A DNA stretch of 64,000 bases from Gammaproteobacteria bacterium (GCA_963662355.1 OY759361.1:1865668-1929667), one strand, 5' to 3'. Shown: positions 26,382 to 36,177, numbered from the stretch's first letter. The notes: a model not told the origin generated them from the sequence alone. Made by a program: numbers and translations.

Positions 26382-26654
26382 ATGCCAAAATATATGATTG
26401 AACGTGAAATCCCTGGAGCTGGTGACCTACAGGCTGATGATCTAAAGGGAATTTCCCAAAAATCATGCAACATCTTAAAAGAAATGGGTCCCCAGATTCA
26501 GTGGATAGAAAGCTTTGTAACAGACGACAAGATCTATTGTACTTACATAGCACCAAATGAAGACGAAATCCGAAAGCATGCAGAAGAAGGTGGATTTCCA
26601 GCCAACAAGATTGTAGAAATCAAAACGGTTATAAGCCCCACTACAGCAGAATAA
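26382..26654 (+). CDS. DUF4242-like small protein (90 aa)
   Basis: ORF with a good RBS (aggagaattctactATG) and conserved-looking sequence; function unknown. Confidence 0.5.
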   Translation: MPKYMIEREIPGAGDLQADDLKGISQKSCNILKEMGPQIQWIESFVTDDKIYCTYIAPNEDEIRKHAEEGGFPANKIVEIKTVISPTTAE

Positions 26655-26728
26655 CGCGCATTCCAAGTTAACAATCTAATCAGTATTTCTGTCAGCCTCT
26701 GTTCAGAAAGGCTGATGGAAGTACTTGA

Positions 26729-27358
26729 TTATCCGGGCTTTGAGAAAAACTGGCCCAGCGTGCTTTCATACAGCCAGCCAAAGGATTTCTTAAACTGCTC
26801 AAGAAGATATTCTGAGGGTGTTTGCGGCTTAACCTTCACCATTTGCGGATGGCCGGATAGTAAGCCTATTAAAAACTTTGTCATTGCAGGTGAATCCCAC
26901 TTGCGCTCCCCTACTGCCTTATAGATAAGCCTGCCCTCTGGATTTACCAAGAATGTCGTAGGCAAACCCAGTACCCCCCAGTTTGCAAGACCCATATCCT
27001 GGTCAATCAGAATCGTAAATTCGACTGGCACTTGATCTAAAAACTTTTCCACACCACTCAGGCTTGGCCCTACATGTATGCCAATCACTTCAAGACCGTT
27101 ACTGCGCATCCTGCTGTGCAAATTATCTAGGGCCGGCATCTCGTTTCTACAGGGCGCACACCATGTAGCCCAAAAGTTAAGCAATACAAATTTTCCCTGG
27201 AAATCATTCAGACTGATACTTGCCCCGTTTACAGCATCCAGCCTGAAACCTTCTGCCTCAGGCTTGCCTGCTATCGGCTCCATGGGTGCTCGAGCCAATA
27301 CCCCGTAAGCAAACAAATACATAAACAAAAACAGACACCAACCCAGTATTTTAATCAT
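26729..27358 (-). CDS. periplasmic thiol:disulfide oxidoreductase, TlpA/ResA-like thioredoxin
   Basis: 209-aa ORF with N-terminal signal/anchor, WCAPC active site, TlpA-like fold and about 40-aa C-terminal extension. Confidence 0.75.
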   Translation of the reverse strand: MIKILGWCLFLFMYLFAYGVLARAPMEPIAGKPEAEGFRLDAVNGASISLNDFQGKFVLLNFWATWCAPCRNEMPALDNLHSRMRSNGLEVIGIHVGPSLSGVEKFLDQVPVEFTILIDQDMGLANWGVLGLPTTFLVNPEGRLIYKAVGERKWDSPAMTKFLIGLLSGHPQMVKVKPQTPSEYLLEQFKKSFGWLYESTLGQFFSKPG

Positions 27359-27582
27359 TGTTAGGTTATCTTACTTGCATATGCACTGATAAAACGTTGC
27401 TAAAAACTGACTCACAATGAATCTGCTTTCACATTTTCATGAATTTCCTTTACTTCCTGTACTCCGACATGACACGCATCGTAAGGCATACTGAAAACCA
27501 GTTGTATGAATTCTTCAACAAAATATTTGCATGGAAATCATCGCTGGTCCAAGACATCCTGCCAATCTTTGGCTCGTGCGTA

Positions 27583-28932
27583 TTAAAATTCTAGCTTATT
27601 CTCGTGGGCCCAATTGGGGTCGTCAGCACTGATATCACCTATAGGCGCAGCAAATGCATCTTCTACCAAAATACTGACGTTACCACCAGTTAGAGACTTC
27701 AAGAAAGCAGCCAGATCATCGATCTCAGTATCAGTCAGGTTCAGCGGCCGTATCAGGGGACTGAGTAATTCGTTGGGTATTCCGCCCTGATTATAAAATT
27801 CAATGACGTCACGCAAGGTCAACAGAGAGCCATTGTGCATGTATGGAGCTGTCAATGCGACATTCCGTAAAGAGGGTGTGCGGTATTTCCATCGGTCATT
27901 CGGATCTTCTGTAACTTCATACAAGCCTAGATCATTTTCTCTGGGTCTTGAAACAGACTTGATGACACTTGTGTCCAGTTCCGTATACACACCAGGTGCC
28001 AGCTGCACCCTTGTGGTTTCAGGCTCTACACCCATCGAGTCCTCAAAACCCACCCCTGTATTATGTAGCTGGTCGTCACTGAACAAAGCAAATCCTTCTT
28101 GAATCTGATGACAGACACTGCAGGAACCCTTGCCTGCAAACACCTTGAATCCACGCTTGACCTGTTCGCTGACTGCATCTTCGTCTTTGCCGTAATACCA
28201 AAGATCAAAGGGCGAATTAGCTGCATTCAAGGTTCGCTGGTAGCTAGCAAGTGCCATGCCGATCGTTTCCATGGTCGGACCTCGACCTTCAAAAGCTCCT
28301 TCAAACAAATTGTCATATTCGCGGATAGCCATGATTTTGTTAATGACATAACCAATGGATGGATTAGCCATCTCATTTCGTGCCAACAACGGAGACCAGA
28401 CCTGTTGCTCCAGAGTAGATTCACGCCCATCATGAAAAATCTTTTCCAAATATGCAGAATTAAAAACGGTAGGCGTGTTACGTTTTACAGTACGCCCTTC
28501 AACGCCAACGGCAGTCTTAATTTCATTGTTGGCAAATCCTTGCTCAGGGATATGGCATATAGCACAAGAAAATGTGTCATTGATTGACAGGCGACGGTCA
28601 AAAAAAAGCTTTCTTCCTAGCTGTATCTTCTTGGTAGTAACAGGATTATCGGCTGGAACAGGAACAGGAGGTAACCCTAACGGGGGGCTACTGACAAAAT
28701 CGATCAGTCTAGCTTCCTTTCCTATGCGCTGTTGTAAATCCAAAGAATTCGTTTGGTAATCAGCAGACTCATAACCCTCCTTGTTATCTCCCGGGCCAAA
28801 CACTGCATGGTTCGTGCTCTCAACCAAGTCTGCGGTGAAACCCCTTAAGGCATACAGTACAAGAGCCAAGATGATAGCACTGAAAATAATCGGGACTTTT
28901 ATATTCTTAATTGATCTATTTATGAAATGCAT
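27583..28932 (-). CDS. mauG: di-haem cytochrome c peroxidase family protein (MauG-like)
   Basis: 449-aa ORF with N-terminal TM helix and two CxxCH haem motifs (CAICH, CSVCH). The start overlaps the stop of the upstream SCO1 gene (ATGA). Confidence 0.7.
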   Translation of the reverse strand: MHFINRSIKNIKVPIIFSAIILALVLYALRGFTADLVESTNHAVFGPGDNKEGYESADYQTNSLDLQQRIGKEARLIDFVSSPPLGLPPVPVPADNPVTTKKIQLGRKLFFDRRLSINDTFSCAICHIPEQGFANNEIKTAVGVEGRTVKRNTPTVFNSAYLEKIFHDGRESTLEQQVWSPLLARNEMANPSIGYVINKIMAIREYDNLFEGAFEGRGPTMETIGMALASYQRTLNAANSPFDLWYYGKDEDAVSEQVKRGFKVFAGKGSCSVCHQIQEGFALFSDDQLHNTGVGFEDSMGVEPETTRVQLAPGVYTELDTSVIKSVSRPRENDLGLYEVTEDPNDRWKYRTPSLRNVALTAPYMHNGSLLTLRDVIEFYNQGGIPNELLSPLIRPLNLTDTEIDDLAAFLKSLTGGNVSILVEDAFAAPIGDISADDPNWAHENKLEF

Positions 28933-29678
28933 TATGAATCTATTCGGCCAGGCAATACTCCTTCCTCAATAAGAAGTGTTTTAATGTCGACAGTGACCAA
29001 TTGATCATGTAAAAACGAAACACTGTATTCCTGTCGAATATTTTTCGACCTGTCAATCAGGAAGGCACGCAAAACATGCGCCATAGTCCCCTTGTATTTC
29101 CCGCTTTCATCATACTCCTTGATCACCATCTGCCCGTATTGCCTGATAATCGGCCCTAACGTCTCCTCGGAAGCAGTGGTTAAAAATAACCATTGCGGAT
29201 CTCCATCCTCAAACCCTTCGCCATACAGTCTCATGACTTCAGGAGTATCGTGTTCAGGATCAAAGCTTACACTGATCAACCGGATCGTTTTCGCAAGCTC
29301 CGGGTCATCCTTGAAACGTTCCTTGACTTTATAGAATACAGCAGTCGCCAATGGACAGCCGTTGAAATCTGTGCAACTGCTATAGATGAATGTGAGAAGT
29401 ACGATTTTGTCTCCCATCAACTCACCTAGCTCCAGTTCTTTTCCATCCGGGCCCAAAACAGACCCACCTCCTGCAACGCCTACCCTCGGCAGAGCATATG
29501 ACCCCGGCTTAGGCACTTCATAGGGTAAACTGGCCTTCCAGCCATCTGCCATGATCCTGACTTCTGCACGCGCTGCATGTGAACCCGAGAGATATGAATC
29601 GCGATCAGTATCGCGGTCACAGCCGGGTCCAGCTAGCAGGACACCGCACAACACCAAACCTGTGAAAAATTTTTTCAT
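28932..29678 (-). CDS. SCO1/SenC-family copper chaperone
   Basis: 248-aa lipoprotein-like ORF (signal peptide + LAGPGC), thioredoxin fold with a Cys pair CTDFNGCP in place of the canonical CxxxC, conserved distal His. Confidence 0.7.
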   Translation of the reverse strand: MKKFFTGLVLCGVLLAGPGCDRDTDRDSYLSGSHAARAEVRIMADGWKASLPYEVPKPGSYALPRVGVAGGGSVLGPDGKELELGELMGDKIVLLTFIYSSCTDFNGCPLATAVFYKVKERFKDDPELAKTIRLISVSFDPEHDTPEVMRLYGEGFEDGDPQWLFLTTASEETLGPIIRQYGQMVIKEYDESGKYKGTMAHVLRAFLIDRSKNIRQEYSVSFLHDQLVTVDIKTLLIEEGVLPGRIDS

Positions 29679-29778
29679 CTACAACAACTACTCCAGAAAC
29701 GACAAGGCCGCCTCACAGGCGGCCTTGTTCCAGTTCTAATTCTGGCTGATGATTACATCATTGTAAACAAGCCGCTTT

Positions 29779-31155
29779 TTAATGTTGTGACAGCAGCGTA
29801 CCCGTGGAGTTCGGTTTTTGCGAATACAGTGAGTATGCTCCAAAACGCATCTGATGGGCACGGCCAAGTTTCAGAGCGTAGAAATCTACCGTAAACTCAT
29901 GAACAAGCTCCTGTCCGTTCCATGAAAACAATTTGAAAAACTGTTCGTCCATGTCACCGGTTTTATCCCAGTTTCCTAACAAAGATGACGTGAAGTAAGT
30001 ACGTTTCCCATCCCAACTCTGTGAAATCATGTTCACTTGTGAACCAATCTCATGCTCATATGTCTGCTTTGGATTAAATGGGTCAGAAATATCAAAATAT
30101 CGCGTCTTGCCATCCATGAAGGTCTGTACCCAAAGACCCTTATCATCTGCTGTAATTGAGATATCCACAGGCAACGGCACTTTAGAGGGATCACCTATAT
30201 CCCCTACTGCCTTGGCTTGCCATTCACCTGCATCGTCTTCATAGATCAACCAGATTTTTGAAGTCAAGGCCGTAGTGGTCAAACAGTAGTTATGATTTGA
30301 ACCCCATGCGCAACGAATTTCCAAAGGCGCCCCAGGAACTTCAAATACTTTTTTCGGTTTACGGGTATGCAAGTCCCACACTACCACAGTATTACCAAAC
30401 CGTTTCATGGCCTCTGCATCTGAAAGCATCTTGCTGAAATCCATCATGTAGTTGGACCAGCCCGTAAACGAGGAGGTAATCATCACGTTTCGACGTGGCA
30501 AAGCCCGCACATCGTAACCATATCCGTCAGCAATATTTCCCACCTTCTTAGCACCACGCAGATTTTCATCTGTCGGCATCCAATGTGCAGCAACAAATTC
30601 ACCTTCATTGGTAAATTCTGCAATTCCGGTCCTGCCTCCATGATCCACATTATTGGATAAAGCACTGACCATGATTCGGCCAGGTAAGGCATACATTGTG
30701 TGAGGGCCAACCATGCCTCCAGTCTTCTCTACAAAATCAGTAATAACTTTATGCAAGACGGGTTTACTAGGATTGGTGTGTACATCAAAAATAAAAATCT
30801 TGTTGCTGTCCAGACCACCACCAAACAGATAACGACGATCATCCGTTAAACCGGAGTGGTGCGCTTCATTACGTCCTCCTACAGAAAGCACATTGACAAC
30901 TTTCCCGTAGTTGACTGAATCTGGATTAACAGAAATGGTAACCAGCTTATCCTGCTCATCACCAAGACCTTCTACACCCAATGTCCAAACGTACACATAG
31001 TCTTCTTGGCCAACGATTTTTGCCATATAGGGAGACATACAGGTCTCATCGGCCATAGCAGTAGAGTGAAAGCCAATTGCAGATGCCAGTACGACCCATA
31101 AAAATGCAATGCTGCCTTGCACCCACTTAGCTTGTGATTTCGCCATTTTCTTCAT
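29779..31155 (-). CDS. mtoX: selenium-binding-protein (SBP56) family methanethiol oxidase
   Basis: 458-aa ORF with signal peptide and SBP56 beta-propeller architecture including His-rich sites (EAHHSG...). The gene order SBP56 - SCO1 - MauG is the one reported for mtoX in Hyphomicrobium. Confidence 0.75.
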   Translation of the reverse strand: MKKMAKSQAKWVQGSIAFLWVVLASAIGFHSTAMADETCMSPYMAKIVGQEDYVYVWTLGVEGLGDEQDKLVTISVNPDSVNYGKVVNVLSVGGRNEAHHSGLTDDRRYLFGGGLDSNKIFIFDVHTNPSKPVLHKVITDFVEKTGGMVGPHTMYALPGRIMVSALSNNVDHGGRTGIAEFTNEGEFVAAHWMPTDENLRGAKKVGNIADGYGYDVRALPRRNVMITSSFTGWSNYMMDFSKMLSDAEAMKRFGNTVVVWDLHTRKPKKVFEVPGAPLEIRCAWGSNHNYCLTTTALTSKIWLIYEDDAGEWQAKAVGDIGDPSKVPLPVDISITADDKGLWVQTFMDGKTRYFDISDPFNPKQTYEHEIGSQVNMISQSWDGKRTYFTSSLLGNWDKTGDMDEQFFKLFSWNGQELVHEFTVDFYALKLGRAHQMRFGAYSLYSQKPNSTGTLLSQH

Positions 31156-31475
31156 ATCTACAGGACTCCGTATGATTTTCGTTGATTGAAACTTTTTCTC
31201 GAAATTCTTTCAACTGTCCATTATGCCGTATCCAGTATTCTATTCAAGGCTGTATCAATCAATATCCCTAGTTTTTCAACATTTAAACTGCATTATAGAA
31301 CAAGCCAGAAATAAAGCAGACCGAGCAAGCTAGCTTAGTAAAGCCTGTTTTATTTGCTCTGAATAATTACAATTGTCACGAGCACAGCAAATTTGATGGA
31401 TATGCCTCGGTAACCGAAACATTATTTGCACTTACTATTTGATCAGCAGCAAGCAGGGTAAATTCCCTTTTTAAA

Positions 31476-32042
31476 ATGCTTAACAATTTACATAGATTTC
31501 ATTTATTTTTTTTATTGATTATTTGCCTTGCTGCCAGCTTGGCTGAAGCCGACAGGGTGGGAGGTGATTTTGAGCTTACCACTCACCAAAACATGCCCTA
31601 CTCACTGGCTAATTCCAGGGGTCAGGTAGTTTTATTGTTCTTCGGCTTTACAAGCTGTCCGGATGTATGCCCTCACACATTAAGTGTCGTTCAAAGCGTA
31701 TTGAACCAATTAGGCTCCAAAGCCCAACAGGTTCAGCCACTGTTCATCACCGTTGACCCCAACCGTGATACGCCAGAAATTTTGAAACATTACCTGGAAT
31801 ATTTTGGCAGCGGTTATATAGGCTTAACCGGGTCTGTTGAGGAGATAGATAAAGTAGTTGGCCAGTTCAGTGCCTTTTACTCATTTGAAGGGAATACTGT
31901 TGAAGGCGCCTACTCTGTCAATCATACTTCCAATTTATATATAATAGACACTGAAGGTGAAGTTGCAAGCATAGTTCCTTATGGTACACCCATGCAGGCA
32001 ATCCTTAGGAGTATTGAGGAATTGCTGCTTAGCAAGTTATAG
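31476..32042 (+). CDS. SCO1/SenC-family copper chaperone (second paralogue)
   Basis: 188-aa ORF with signal peptide and the canonical CPDVCP motif; divergent from mtoX. Confidence 0.75.
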   Translation: MLNNLHRFHLFFLLIICLAASLAEADRVGGDFELTTHQNMPYSLANSRGQVVLLFFGFTSCPDVCPHTLSVVQSVLNQLGSKAQQVQPLFITVDPNRDTPEILKHYLEYFGSGYIGLTGSVEEIDKVVGQFSAFYSFEGNTVEGAYSVNHTSNLYIIDTEGEVASIVPYGTPMQAILRSIEELLLSKL

Positions 32043-32053
32043 CCAGAAGGCCA

Positions 32054-32440
32054 TTATTTGTACTGAATGTAGGCAAAGCGTGGGTCGCTTGGCGTGCCCT
32101 CCAAATCTCCACTGCCTGTACCAGGTTGCCACATTATTACCTCTTCAATTTTCTGAGCCAGTTCAAAGTCCTTATTGGTGACCCCCTTGGCAGCATGATT
32201 CATTAGCTTGCAGATGACAAAAGCATAAGACACCGTGAGGTCAGGATGATGAAAGGCTGCTTCTGCTAAATGTCCAATCGTATTCACTACCATAAGTGTG
32301 CCTTTCCAGCCATGTGTCCTGTACTTTCTACGAATCCATCCATTCTCGTAATACCAAGTAGGCAATTCTTCAGTTAGCCTTTCTTTTATTTGTTCTTCTG
32401 TATAGGTCTGTTCAGATTTGATATCGCGCCACTTCGACAT
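32054..32440 (-). CDS. pterin-4a-carbinolamine dehydratase-like protein
   Basis: 128-aa ORF with the PCD signature ...EAAFHHPDLTVSYAF... Confidence 0.6.
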   Translation of the reverse strand: MSKWRDIKSEQTYTEEQIKERLTEELPTWYYENGWIRRKYRTHGWKGTLMVVNTIGHLAEAAFHHPDLTVSYAFVICKLMNHAAKGVTNKDFELAQKIEEVIMWQPGTGSGDLEGTPSDPRFAYIQYK

Positions 32441-32723: not shown

Positions 32724-33605
32724 TCAGCAGGGCATAGATAAGGTAGCCACTTTTACGACATTTTTCATCAACATGGCCACGGTCATTGGACCCACACCGC
32801 CCGGCACAGGGGTAATCATTGAAGCAACACCTATGGCCTGAGCAAAGTCCACATCTCCTACGAGACAGGTTTTTCCATCCTCTTCAATGCGATTAATCCC
32901 AACATCTATGACGATCGCCCCAGGTTTTATCATGTCTGCCTTAATAAACCGTGCCTGTCCTATCGCCGCAATCAGGATGTCAGCCTGCAGTGTGAAATTC
33001 TCAATATTTTCAGTTCTGGAGTGACACACAGTAACTGTTGAATTGGCATATCTGGCTTTTTGTACCAGCATGTTCATAAGCGGTTTCCCTACAATATTGC
33101 TGCGCCCGACGATAACTACGTGCTTGCCAACAGTTTCAATACCGCTCCTTGAAATCAACTGCGATACCGCATTGGGTGTACAGGAAACCAAGGTATCCAG
33201 TCCGGCAGTCAAGCACCCGACATTATAGGGGTGGAAACCGTCAACATCCTTTTGAGGCGAAATTGCAGCGATGATGTTGTGTTCTCCAATATGGTCAGGC
33301 AAGGGTAACTGGACCAAGATGCCATGCACCTCAGGATTATCATTTAACGTAGTGATCAGCCCGATCAGTTCTGGCTCAGAAATATCCTCTAGAAGGTCAT
33401 GTTGAATCAATCGTATTCCGACTTGCCTTCCTGCTTCCTGCTTGGCTCCCACATAGGCACGAGAAGCAGGATCACTCCCAACCAGGATAACCGCCAGACA
33501 AGGATGCACACCCCGTGATTGCAGCTTGTCTACTTGGCCTTTAACTTCCAGTTGAATTTGTGTGGCAATCGCTTTCCCGTCAATTAGTACTGTCGCCATA
33601 GTCAC
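32724..33605 (-). CDS. folD: bifunctional methylenetetrahydrofolate dehydrogenase/methenyltetrahydrofolate cyclohydrolase
   Basis: 293-aa ORF, FolD co-linear (IDGKAIA...VILVGSDPASRAYV...). Confidence 0.9.
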   Translation of the reverse strand: MTMATVLIDGKAIATQIQLEVKGQVDKLQSRGVHPCLAVILVGSDPASRAYVGAKQEAGRQVGIRLIQHDLLEDISEPELIGLITTLNDNPEVHGILVQLPLPDHIGEHNIIAAISPQKDVDGFHPYNVGCLTAGLDTLVSCTPNAVSQLISRSGIETVGKHVVIVGRSNIVGKPLMNMLVQKARYANSTVTVCHSRTENIENFTLQADILIAAIGQARFIKADMIKPGAIVIDVGINRIEEDGKTCLVGDVDFAQAIGVASMITPVPGGVGPMTVAMLMKNVVKVATLSMPC

Positions 33606-33707
33606 CTCAAATCAATTTAAAACGACAACTGGCCTCTTCATCAGACAATACATCACTACACTTCAGATTCTTTCACAAAAATTACATTTCTTGATTGTAC
33701 CGCAATG

Positions 33708-33740
33708 CAAAAACGGCGAACGTATAGTCCGCCGTTTTCA
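33708..33740 (-). terminator. rho-independent terminator downstream of the EGKCG-repeat gene (bidirectional-looking hairpin)
   Basis: Stem acggcg/cgccgt (33713-33718 / 33730-33735) flanked by A5 on one side and T4 on the other. Confidence 0.5.
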
Positions 33741-33769
33741 CAAAGCTACAGGTAAACCGAAGAGCAGTA

Positions 33770-34222
33770 TTAGCTGCTGTCACTACCTTCTTCGGATTTA
33801 CCTTCCCCGCATTTGCCTTCTCCACACTTGCCTTCCCCGCATTTGCCTTCTTCAGATTTATCCTCTTCAGATTCGCCTTCCCCGCATTTGCCTTCCCCAC
33901 ACTTGCCTTCCCCGCATTTGCCTTCTTCAGATTTATCCTCTTCAGATTCGCCTTCCCCGCATTTGCCTTCCCCACACTTGCCTTCCCCGCATTTGCCTTC
34001 TTCAGATTTATCCTCTTCAGATTCGCCTTCCCCGCATTTGCCTTCCCCACATTTACCTTCCTCGGCTGCACCATGGCTATCAGCTACCATGTACCCGGCT
34101 GACAATTCGGTCATTTGAAACAGGTCTTGATCAGCACTTGCTGTAGAAATTCCAAATGCGCCTGTTGCCAAGACTGCACCAACAGCCACTACCAATGGCT
34201 TTAATTCAGATTTCGCTTTCAT
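33770..34222 (-). CDS. secreted EGKCG-repeat protein (HvfA-like oxazolone/thioamide RiPP-type Cu-metallophore precursor family)
   Basis: 150-aa ORF. Sec signal peptide MKAKSELKPLVVAVGAVLATGAFGISTASA, then 9 EGKCG motifs in three identical 25-aa modules (EGKCG)3-EGESEEDKSE plus a partial fourth. SD-like aggag upstream and a terminator hairpin downstream. Confidence 0.7.
   Translation of the reverse strand: MKAKSELKPLVVAVGAVLATGAFGISTASADQDLFQMTELSAGYMVADSHGAAEEGKCGEGKCGEGESEEDKSEEGKCGEGKCGEGKCGEGESEEDKSEEGKCGEGKCGEGKCGEGESEEDKSEEGKCGEGKCGEGKCGEGKSEEGSDSS
33800..34060. repeat. 75-bp near-perfect tandem repeat, about 3.5 copies (encodes the EGKCG modules); also internal 15-bp sub-repeats
   Basis: Units 33801-33874, 33875-33949 and 33950-34024 are identical except 1 nt. 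A diverged partial copy runs to about 34060. Confidence 0.9.
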
Positions 34223-34727
34223 AAAACTCTCCTAAGGTTTTTTGTTTTCAATCAATTTTTAAGGAACAGAATCTTAAGGATACACATTGCACCATCAGCC
34301 ATTCCTGATTTAGAAAGCTACCGTATACAATTCAGCCAGGTAAACCAAGTATCAAAGTAGCTTAAAATCTCCTTAAGGCTTTACGCATGCATCCCAATCG
34401 ATCACCACAATTTAACATAGTATTATAGTAGTATCACAAGTATATGGCGTCACTTTCTGTACCTGTGGGTAACAGAACTATTTAGTTGCTTATAAGAAAA
34501 TGGCTAGACACATTCATGACTAGAAATCTTAGCTCGACCATACATCTTTTCAACCAGTTACAATGATAACCGCTCGCATCAGGTTCCGTAGTTAGCAGGC
34601 AAACCGGTTTTACCTTAATAGCGGGTTCTCCATGAATAAGGGAAGAACAATTTACCTTCAGCGAAACAAGAAAGAATAGCTTCTCTTTTAAACTGACATC
34701 CTTACAGCCACTCAGTTCCCCATCATA

Positions 34728-35267
34728 ATGGATGAAAAACCTTTTACCATCTGTGGTGTAATTGCAGCAGGATGGAGCCTGGCCGGCCTGCTGCTGTTAC
34801 TTGGATTTGCAATCTGGAGATTATCCCTATACACCATCGAATCTTTGCACATGCCAATGAACTGGATGCACTGGACTGTGTTCATTGGCTTTACGGTCTT
34901 TATGGCACACAGCGAAGGGTATAAAGGATTTCAAAAAAAATTTTCACCGCGATTTGCTGCTCGAACAAAATACTTACTAGCAAACAGTACGGTAACACAA
35001 TGCATTTTTGCACCGCTATTTAGCATGGGCTTTTTCCATGCCCCCAAAAAACGTATTGTCGCTTCTATCTGCCTTACCATCATGATAGTTGTTTTTATTT
35101 TCCTATTTCAATACATCCCCCAGCCATGGAAGGGCTTGCTGGATGCAGGTGTTGTGATTGGATTAATTTGGGGCATGATCTCCACTATCCTGTTCTGCAC
35201 CAAAGCATTTTCAAATGCCGAATACAATTGGGATGCAGAAATTTTAAACATCCACTCCAAGTCGTAA
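34728..35267 (+). CDS. hypothetical 4-TM inner-membrane protein (179 aa)
   Basis: Four clear hydrophobic helices; no motif recognised. Divergent from the EGKCG-repeat gene across a 505-bp intergenic region. Confidence 0.45.
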   Translation: MDEKPFTICGVIAAGWSLAGLLLLLGFAIWRLSLYTIESLHMPMNWMHWTVFIGFTVFMAHSEGYKGFQKKFSPRFAARTKYLLANSTVTQCIFAPLFSMGFFHAPKKRIVASICLTIMIVVFIFLFQYIPQPWKGLLDAGVVIGLIWGMISTILFCTKAFSNAEYNWDAEILNIHSKS

Positions 35268-35322: not shown

Positions 35323-36147
35323 TCAGCTTGTATGAATAGCCCAGGTGACATCGATAGCCTGACGATTTTGCCAAACATCGTGCACACGAAATATTTTTAC
35401 TCCTGCTAACACCCCAAGAGCAGACGTCGCGCATGTTGCCGGCATCCTTGCCCTTGGATTCTCCTGCATTGAAATCTCACCCATAAATCGTTTACGGCTA
35501 GTACCCAGCATCACCGGGTACCCTAGTCCAGTAAACATCTTCAGATCCCGTAGTAATTCCAGGTTATGTTGAGTTCGTTTACCAAACCCAATTCCCGGGT
35601 CGAGTATAATGTTATCTTTTTTTACACCTATATCCTGAGCCTTCTCAGCCCGGCCCAAAAGAAAGTCTGATACTTCTCGGGTGACATTTTCGTAATCAGG
35701 ATGATCCTGCATGGTTGCGGGCTCTCCACGCATGTGCATTAGACAAACAGGAACTTCAGCCACTGCTGCAAGTTTTAATAAACCCATGTCTTCACGGCCC
35801 GCACTCACATCATTCAGCATGGTTGCACCTGCATCCAAGGCCGCGTAGGCAACTTCAGATAAAGTCGTATCAATGCTGATATGGATATGTTCAGGCAACT
35901 CCGCATGCAGACCTGCGATCACATCAATCACCCTGCGCTTTTGCTCTGACGCTCCTACACGAGTGGACCCTGGTCGAGTTGATTCTCCACCTACATCAAT
36001 AATATCTGCACCTTGTTCAACCATTTCTATCCCGCAGGCAATTGCATCTTTGGAAGAAGGGTATACTCCACCATCGGAAAAACTGTCTGGTGTTACATTG
36101 AGCACACCCATCAGAAGTGGCCTTGAATAATCTAAATGCACAGTCAT
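35323..36147 (-). CDS. folP: dihydropteroate synthase
   Basis: Classic FolP motifs LMGVLNVTPDSFSDGG and IIDVGGESTRPG. The ORF as called starts at 36177, but the internal Met at 36147 aligns with FolP N-termini. Confidence 0.85.
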   Translation of the reverse strand: MTVHLDYSRPLLMGVLNVTPDSFSDGGVYPSSKDAIACGIEMVEQGADIIDVGGESTRPGSTRVGASEQKRRVIDVIAGLHAELPEHIHISIDTTLSEVAYAALDAGATMLNDVSAGREDMGLLKLAAVAEVPVCLMHMRGEPATMQDHPDYENVTREVSDFLLGRAEKAQDIGVKKDNIILDPGIGFGKRTQHNLELLRDLKMFTGLGYPVMLGTSRKRFMGEISMQENPRARMPATCATSALGVLAGVKIFRVHDVWQNRQAIDVTWAIHTS

Positions 36148-36177
36148 ATGCCTCAGTAAATGGAATCTGTTACACAA

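Follow-up and report, generated by a model that had tools for sequence, protein, structure and literature searches.

The closest described relative of the gene reported here is HvfA of nontypeable Haemophilus influenzae (NTHI1441). HvfA carries a Sec signal peptide and EGKCG repeats, and it is encoded in one operon with its maturase (PMC11252979; bioRxiv 10.64898/2026.06.05.730506). The partners are the MNIO enzyme HvfB, the DUF2063 RRE partner HvfC and the DoxX protein HvfX. H. influenzae HvfB and HvfC modify all six repeat cysteines of HvfA, with a mass change of -4 Da each, and they also modify small HvfA fragments lacking the signal peptide and N-terminal region (PMC11252979). Modified and unmodified HvfA each bind several Cu(I) in vitro (PMC11252979). 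Copper binding hence does not strictly require the modification. The modified group, formerly described as oxazolone/thioamide, has been reassigned to 5-thiooxazole both by the original authors (bioRxiv 10.64898/2026.06.05.730506) and in a second study (bioRxiv 10.1101/2025.11.18.689057). The oxazolone/thioamide chemistry assumed in a first-pass annotation of our locus is thus out of date.

The same motif, a signal peptide, variable repeat numbers and Pseudomonadota hosts are features of the Buf_EGKCG or oxazolin family (PMC12452194) and of captophorins such as fontiphorin FonA (bioRxiv 10.1101/2025.11.18.689057). Stand-alone precursor genes have already been reported, and modification by an MNIO at another locus was suggested (PMC12452194). 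Complete genomes with Buf_EGKCG genes encode an MNIO in 97% of cases, and 67 of 2,583 do not (PMC12452194, Table 3). Bufferins of the Buf1 (DUF2282) and Buf2 (Buf_6/12Cys) types are a further parallel, as Sec-exported, cysteine-derived 5-thiooxazole copper chelators matured by MNIO, DUF2063 and DoxX proteins, with closely related MNIOs. Bufferins differ in their repeat architecture though. Methanobactin, produced by MbnB and MbnC from MbnA, is also a copper-binding RiPP made from cysteines by an MNIO. In contrast, this small secreted chalkophore carries oxazolone/thioamide groups, depends on a different partner protein (MbnC) and lacks both a Sec signal peptide and EGKCG motifs.

Here, we describe an EGKCG precursor gene in the window, i.e. 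the whole 64-kb stretch of gammaproteobacterial DNA that was analysed. The precursor is a genuine gene of a known RiPP family and does not represent a novel type of system. The usual hvfA-hvfB-hvfC(-doxX) cluster is split in this lineage. Judging from the characterised systems, HvfBC probably matures the precursor in trans, to yield a Cu(I) buffer of the periplasm. New chemistry does not follow from an apparently orphan RiPP precursor, as the maturase can sit hundreds of kilobases away in an operon without a precursor. Cluster-based genome mining would miss such a pairing of precursor and maturase.

The precursor gene and its family

The hvfA-like gene encodes an EGKCG-repeat RiPP metallophore precursor of the oxazolin or Buf_EGKCG type and is located on the minus strand at 33770..34222, including the stop codon. 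The open reading frame starts with ATG and spans 150 aa. ORF calling and inspection of the N-terminus agree with the earlier reading of a minus-strand frame with a Sec signal peptide. The predicted signal peptide covers residues 1-30 (34133..34222, minus strand) and reads MKAKSELKPLVVAVGAVLATGAFGISTASA followed by DQ. By inspection, a K-rich n-region leads into a hydrophobic core of 20 residues and an A-S-A site, with cleavage likely occurring between A-S-A and D. The signal-peptide region is conserved across homologues (alignment A1). The mature peptide begins with a conserved N-terminal region of 24 residues, DQDLFQMTELSAGYMVADSHGAAE (34061..34132, minus strand), where F35, S41, G43, Y44 and M45 are invariant in the same alignment. 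The motif FxMTELS(S/A)GYM of this region is kept among homologues. It occurs in 8 of the 80 species-representative loci, and 7 of these 8 adjoin hvfB. The N-terminal region is a possible recognition region for HvfC.

The repeat core (33806..34060, minus strand) contains 11 EGKCG motifs in four blocks (2+3+3+3), between which the linker EGESEEDKSE recurs three times without change. With C for EGKCG and L for the linker, the order is CC-L-CCC-L-CCC-L-CCC-tail, and the tail reads EGKSEEGSDSS. The nine EGKCG motifs and nine cysteines reported by the first-pass annotation are an undercount, since motif counting yields 11 of each. The described composition of EGKCG motifs and acidic linkers stands. 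The arrangement as three identical 25-aa modules and a partial fourth does not, as only two modules have the full 25 aa, the first one being shorter and the last triplet ending in a variant tail. Tandem Repeats Finder detected the underlying DNA repeat at 33789..34061, with a 75-bp period, 3.6 copies and 96% matches. The 15-nt EGKCG unit is present in four DNA variants, all synonymous. The mature part is highly acidic with 38 acidic and 15 basic residues. Modification and Cu(I) binding are predicted to occur at the 11 cysteines. The AlphaFold2 model (17-sequence alignment) has a mean pLDDT of 42.8, and the signal-peptide helix is the sole structure. Such an unstructured model fits a flexible precursor.

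The precursor is an HvfA-family member but not a strict HvfA equivalog. The search against family HMMs bore out the proposed HvfA-family assignment. The protein scored 81.1 bits against the 19.5-bit cut-off of NCBIfam NF050137 (KCGExKCG_twice, HvfA-family RiPP metallophore domain), with E = 3.2e-23 and five matched stretches. This model is titled 'HvfA family oxazolone/thioamide-modified RiPP metallophore'. The equivalog model for H. influenzae HvfA, NF050188, yielded 50.5 bits, below its cut-off of 95. Pfam has no model for the EGKCG precursor family and returned no family for the precursor at E <= 10, hence also no DUF2282 as expected of bufferin Buf1. A leader and core as in MbnA are lacking as well. 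Compared with HvfA, the window precursor has 11 rather than six modifiable cysteines and lacks the N-terminal disulfide pair. It is built from EGKCG triplets and 10-aa acidic linkers instead of the AEGKCGEGKCG pairs of HvfA, and its 25-residue module of three EGKCG motifs and a linker also sets it apart from Buf_EGKCG proteins and captophorins. A search of a large protein collection recovered 44 homologues, mostly from metagenome-assembled Gammaproteobacteria, some of them fused to EF-hand domains. Precursors carry 5-14 cysteines across 80 species-representative homologues, which makes 11 cysteines ordinary. An exact look-up of the 150-aa protein found no match, and the allele is unique to the window's strain. 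The precursor is present in frame in six same-species assemblies and three related species.

The gene has its own expression signals. A Shine-Dalgarno sequence, AGGAGAG, lies 4 nt from the ATG (34227..34233, minus strand), and its AGGAG is invariant in an upstream alignment of four species (A2). RNA folding revealed an intrinsic-terminator-like hairpin of ~16 bp with a U-run in the 3' arm (33706..33742, minus strand). The hairpin begins 28 nt past the hvfA stop codon and folds at -31.6 kcal/mol (z = -6.15), with none of 200 shuffles folding as well. A simple consensus terminator scan yielded nothing above shuffled sequences and missed this hairpin. Its presumed function as a terminator suggests a monocistronic hvfA. 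The densest run of invariant columns in the upstream alignment is a block of ~34 nt located 91-124 nt before the ATG (34313..34346, minus strand), and the remaining intergenic DNA is not conserved. This block may be a promoter or operator. By eye, it fits no sigma-70, sigma-54 or ECF promoter and contains no apparent dyad, and a promoter scan yielded nothing above shuffled sequences and no convincing sigma-70 match. The Rfam search of the whole window recovered only the SRP RNA and one tRNA, with nothing near hvfA.

A window without maturase genes and a remote hvfX-hvfB-hvfC operon in same-species genomes

The hvfA-like gene is located between folP and folD. On one side, the genes running outward are folD (32724..33605), a pterin-4a dehydratase gene (32054..32440), a SCO1 gene (31476..32042), the gene for the Cu-dependent methanethiol oxidase MtoX (29779..31155), a further SCO1 gene (28932..29678), and genes for a MauG/MbnH-like di-haem protein and a redoxin. 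MtoX scored 760 bits with NCBIfam NF052453 (cut-off 650). hvfA and mtoX are 2.6 kb apart, with folD and the pterin dehydratase gene in between. On the other side, a divergent gene for a 179-aa multi-TM protein (34728..35267, plus strand) is followed by folP (35323..36177) and genes for an MBL-fold protein, lepA, degP, rseB, rseA and rpoE. Pfam and NCBIfam searches confirmed the neighbours named in the first-pass annotation, i.e. folD, pterin dehydratase, folP, a 4-TM protein and methanethiol oxidase with two SCO1 proteins.

The 179-aa membrane protein adjoins hvfA in the four species examined and shares 75% identity with the homologue in the related species L022 (tblastn). It has no Pfam or NCBIfam match and carries the strongly conserved motifs HSEGYKGFQK and PQPWKGLLDAGVVIGL. 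The possibility that this 4-TM neighbour is a hidden DoxX was rejected, as hhalign against 29 HvfX/DoxX sequences returned a probability of 0.3%.

None of the 61 substantial ORFs of the window encodes a DUF692/MNIO, DUF2063/HvfC or DoxX protein, based on Pfam for most ORFs and NCBIfam for the last two. Likewise, tblastn searches of the window with the DoxX, MNIO and HvfC proteins of the related locus L010 recovered nothing below E = 0.1. The absence of nearby MbnB/MbnC-type or DoxX partners noted earlier is confirmed and extends to the entire 64-kb window. The window precursor thus lacks the clustering with hvfB and hvfC that is typical of, though not obligatory for, the HvfA family (PMC12452194).

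The maturation genes are found elsewhere in genomes of the same species. The exact sequence of the 179-aa membrane protein occurs on nine contigs, and six loci were fetched (L001-L006). Over about 20 kb, their identity to the window is 99.0-99.75%, which assigns them to the same species. MNIO searches with the L010 protein and P0136 recovered thousands of HvfB-like proteins, and the members of the closest 90% clusters were then listed. The MNIOs P0198, P0194 and P0192 are encoded on contigs of 2,033,262, 2,152,178 and 1,214,352 bp, matching exactly in size contigs with the hvfA locus; a further hvfA locus is in GCA_026713925.1. Four same-species assemblies hence carry a precursor-less hvfX(doxX)-hvfB-hvfC operon. 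On ctg49667c, metG-fdx-nth-doxX-MNIO-hvfC is located at ~1.1135 Mb and the hvfA-like gene at ~0.7358 Mb, i.e. ~377 kb apart. The distance is ~493 kb on ctg17056_6x_l. In GCA_026713925.1, hvfA is on contig 25 and doxX-MNIO-hvfC on contig 35. We found no KCG-rich ORF near the maturase operon in L013-L021, where the stretch from metG to nth has a single extra ORF, for a 4Fe-4S ferredoxin. The operon in the window's own strain is extrapolated from the four same-species assemblies. The DUF692, DUF2063 and DoxX genes that the first-pass annotation proposed to look for genome-wide are present in same-species assemblies and, by this extrapolation, expected in the window's strain.

The remote operon exceeds the NCBIfam equivalog cut-offs for HvfX (228.6 vs 80), HvfB (453.3 vs 360) and HvfC (295.9 vs 142). 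The window's species thus encodes the maturase families of the H. influenzae system at a distance of ~0.3-0.5 Mb from the precursor rather than in one operon with it. The remote MNIO scored below the cut-offs for BufB (264.7 vs 310) and for MbnB (TIGR04159, 47.6 vs 325), which separates the system from bufferins and methanobactin, respectively.

Two related species share the split on single contigs, with distances of ~350 kb (L008/L016) and ~312 kb (L012/L015). In two further loci (L010 and L031), the precursor follows just after nth and doxX-hvfB-hvfC is 2.4-5.9 kb downstream. This layout looks like an intermediate arrangement and suggests that the precursor left the nth locus in the window's clade. 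In addition to what the Buf_EGKCG survey records for stand-alone genes, several species share the split described here, and its partner operon is precursor-less. Proximity is otherwise the rule. Among the 80 species-representative loci, hvfB is near hvfA in 70, of which 68 have it at 1 kb or less and 59 at 100 bp or less. The remaining loci comprise six stand-alone genes with adequate flanks and four with flanks too short to judge. The remote hvfXBC in same-species genomes, together with the known stand-alone precursors, largely dissolves the puzzle of the orphan gene.

The neighbours at the five other stand-alone loci are DoxX together with either MsrP/MsrQ-like genes or a radical-SAM gene, or else are unrelated. 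In L041 (10560-12760) and L064 (3954-5624), DoxX is kept and hvfBC is replaced. The replacement consists of genes for a molybdopterin oxidoreductase and a ferric-reductase-like membrane protein (MsrPQ-like) in one locus and of a DUF3641 radical-SAM gene in another. Pairing of a stand-alone precursor with MsrPQ-like genes was mentioned previously (PMC12452194). A general rule that stand-alone hvfA genes adjoin cuproenzymes is not supported, as these five loci have no cuproenzyme neighbours.

Probable maturation in trans and the unmodified alternative

The proposed mechanism is modelled on the characterised Haemophilus and Fontimonas systems. The precursor would be expressed from a monocistronic gene between folP and folD, and the maturation genes would be those of the precursor-less hvfX(doxX)-hvfB-hvfC operon that adjoins nth at a distance of hundreds of kilobases on the same chromosome. 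In the cytoplasm, the MNIO iron enzyme HvfB and its RRE partner HvfC would oxidise each EGKCG cysteine, up to 11 in total, to a 5-thiooxazole. The peptide would then be exported by Sec, with signal peptidase I cutting off the signal peptide. The disordered and highly acidic product could bind several Cu(I) in the periplasm and act as a copper buffer or sequestering agent. A product binding multiple Cu(I) is expected here by analogy with HvfA. It is likely that HvfBC acts on this precursor by such chemistry and that the product functions in copper binding. The first-pass annotation had offered maturation in trans by enzymes elsewhere in the genome, an unmodified copper buffer, or a substrate of a different chemistry as alternatives. 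The precursor-less hvfX-hvfB-hvfC operon ~377-493 kb away in same-species genomes favours the first. The lineage would then provide a natural in-trans pairing across several species, useful for studying substrate recognition by HvfC.

The main rival is that the peptide is exported unmodified and buffers periplasmic Cu(I) through cysteine thiolates and carboxylates, with the remote hvfXBC serving another substrate or none. We consider this unlikely. The ability of unmodified HvfA to bind multiple Cu(I) in vitro (PMC11252979) is in line with such a role, as is the physical uncoupling of hvfA from the maturase, with its own Shine-Dalgarno sequence and terminator. The authors of the Buf_EGKCG survey also leave open that stand-alone precursors stay unmodified (PMC12452194). 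However, no precursor accompanies the maturase operon in these genomes, and the HvfB, HvfC and HvfX proteins encoded there are of the equivalog type associated with EGKCG precursors. None of the large contigs has more than one entry among the EGKCG precursor matches, hence a second precursor that could occupy the operon is not in evidence. The precursor has also retained its N-terminal region and a canonical context of the EGKCG motifs. Modification in trans by HvfBC thus remains the likely fate of the peptide.

Linkage to methanethiol oxidase and repeat-number variation

The proximity to mtoX raises the question of whether the precursor serves a special job. Once uncoupled from its maturase, the precursor might have been fixed next to mtoX, SCO1 and MauG as a periplasmic Cu(I) reservoir or donor, storing copper for MtoX or delivering it via the two SCO1 proteins instead of providing general protection against copper stress. 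The variation between 5 and 11 cysteines would then tune capacity. MtoX is a periplasmic Cu-dependent enzyme, and its SCO1 neighbour was proposed to mature it (PMC5739008). The linkage of hvfA with mtoX-SCO1-mauG over 2.6 kb in the window recurs in the related species L008, L012 and L022, hence in four species in all. In L007, an EF-hand-fused homologue is found ~5 kb from pterin4a-SCO1-mtoX-SCO1, with different flanks on the other side. However, the linkage is limited to one clade of uncultured Gammaproteobacteria with small genomes (~1.7-2.15 Mb) and could reflect inherited synteny. folD and the pterin dehydratase gene intervene, and hvfA has its own terminator. Furthermore, MtoX is found at only 1 of the 80 species-representative hvfA loci, and the other stand-alone loci lack cuproenzyme neighbours, which makes a dedicated role in MtoX supply quite improbable. 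If true, such a role would give EGKCG metallophores a concrete client enzyme, which is unknown in the literature so far.

Repeat numbers vary within the species. Seven alleles from ~99% identical assemblies encode proteins of 90, 110, 110, 120, 125, 145 and 150 aa with 5, 7, 7, 7, 8, 10 and 11 cysteines, respectively. These alleles were compared as assembled (33806-34060 of the window and about 9061-9495 of L001-L006), and assembly collapse is possible. The alleles differ in the order of EGKCG and EGESEEDKSE units and only by in-frame gains or losses of units. The variation in repeat number and the copper-enzyme neighbour are leads on the physiological role of EGKCG metallophores.

The in-frame variation also bears on whether the ORF is a gene at all. 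That a GA-rich tandem DNA repeat leaves this frame open by chance could be suspected from the three other frames that the repeat keeps open, the missing Pfam match and the unstructured AlphaFold model, but this reading is effectively refuted by the match to a curated family HMM, the signal peptide and Shine-Dalgarno sequence, the exclusively synonymous variation among units, the in-frame indels among all seven alleles and the 65-77% protein identity in other species compared with a mean column identity of 55% in the upstream DNA (A2), and disorder is expected of a RiPP precursor. The overlapping frames at 33562-34146 (plus strand, 194 aa), 33682-34074 (minus strand, 130 aa) and 33813-34118 (plus strand, 101 aa) are by-products of the low-complexity repeat and could be mis-called as genes.

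Additional features of the surroundings concern copper and one-carbon metabolism. The region 26382-32440 of the window forms a periplasmic copper/redox island with genes for a SCO4226-like protein, redoxin, the MauG/MbnH-like di-haem protein, SCO1, MtoX, pterin-4a dehydratase and a second SCO1 that is divergent. mtoX and the second SCO1 gene are separated in locus L004 of the same species by an inserted IS1595-type transposase and N6/N4 DNA methyltransferase. The EF-hand-fused homologue of L007 (8001-8456) is a stand-alone EGKCG protein of 151 aa (P0024) with an internal EF-hand pair, and formate dehydrogenase genes lie between P0024 and the mtoX cluster. L007 thereby offers another setting in which the family is tied to mtoX. 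The window also contains a large tetrahydromethanopterin/methanofuran-linked C1-oxidation cluster at 25-25450. The cluster encodes 4-HFC-P synthase, Fae, Mch, an Mpt_N dehydrogenase, Ftr, formylmethanofuran dehydrogenase-like subunits, PTPS, a CitG-like protein and ATP-grasp proteins. Together with mtoX, this cluster points to a methylotroph-like organism using organosulfur compounds.
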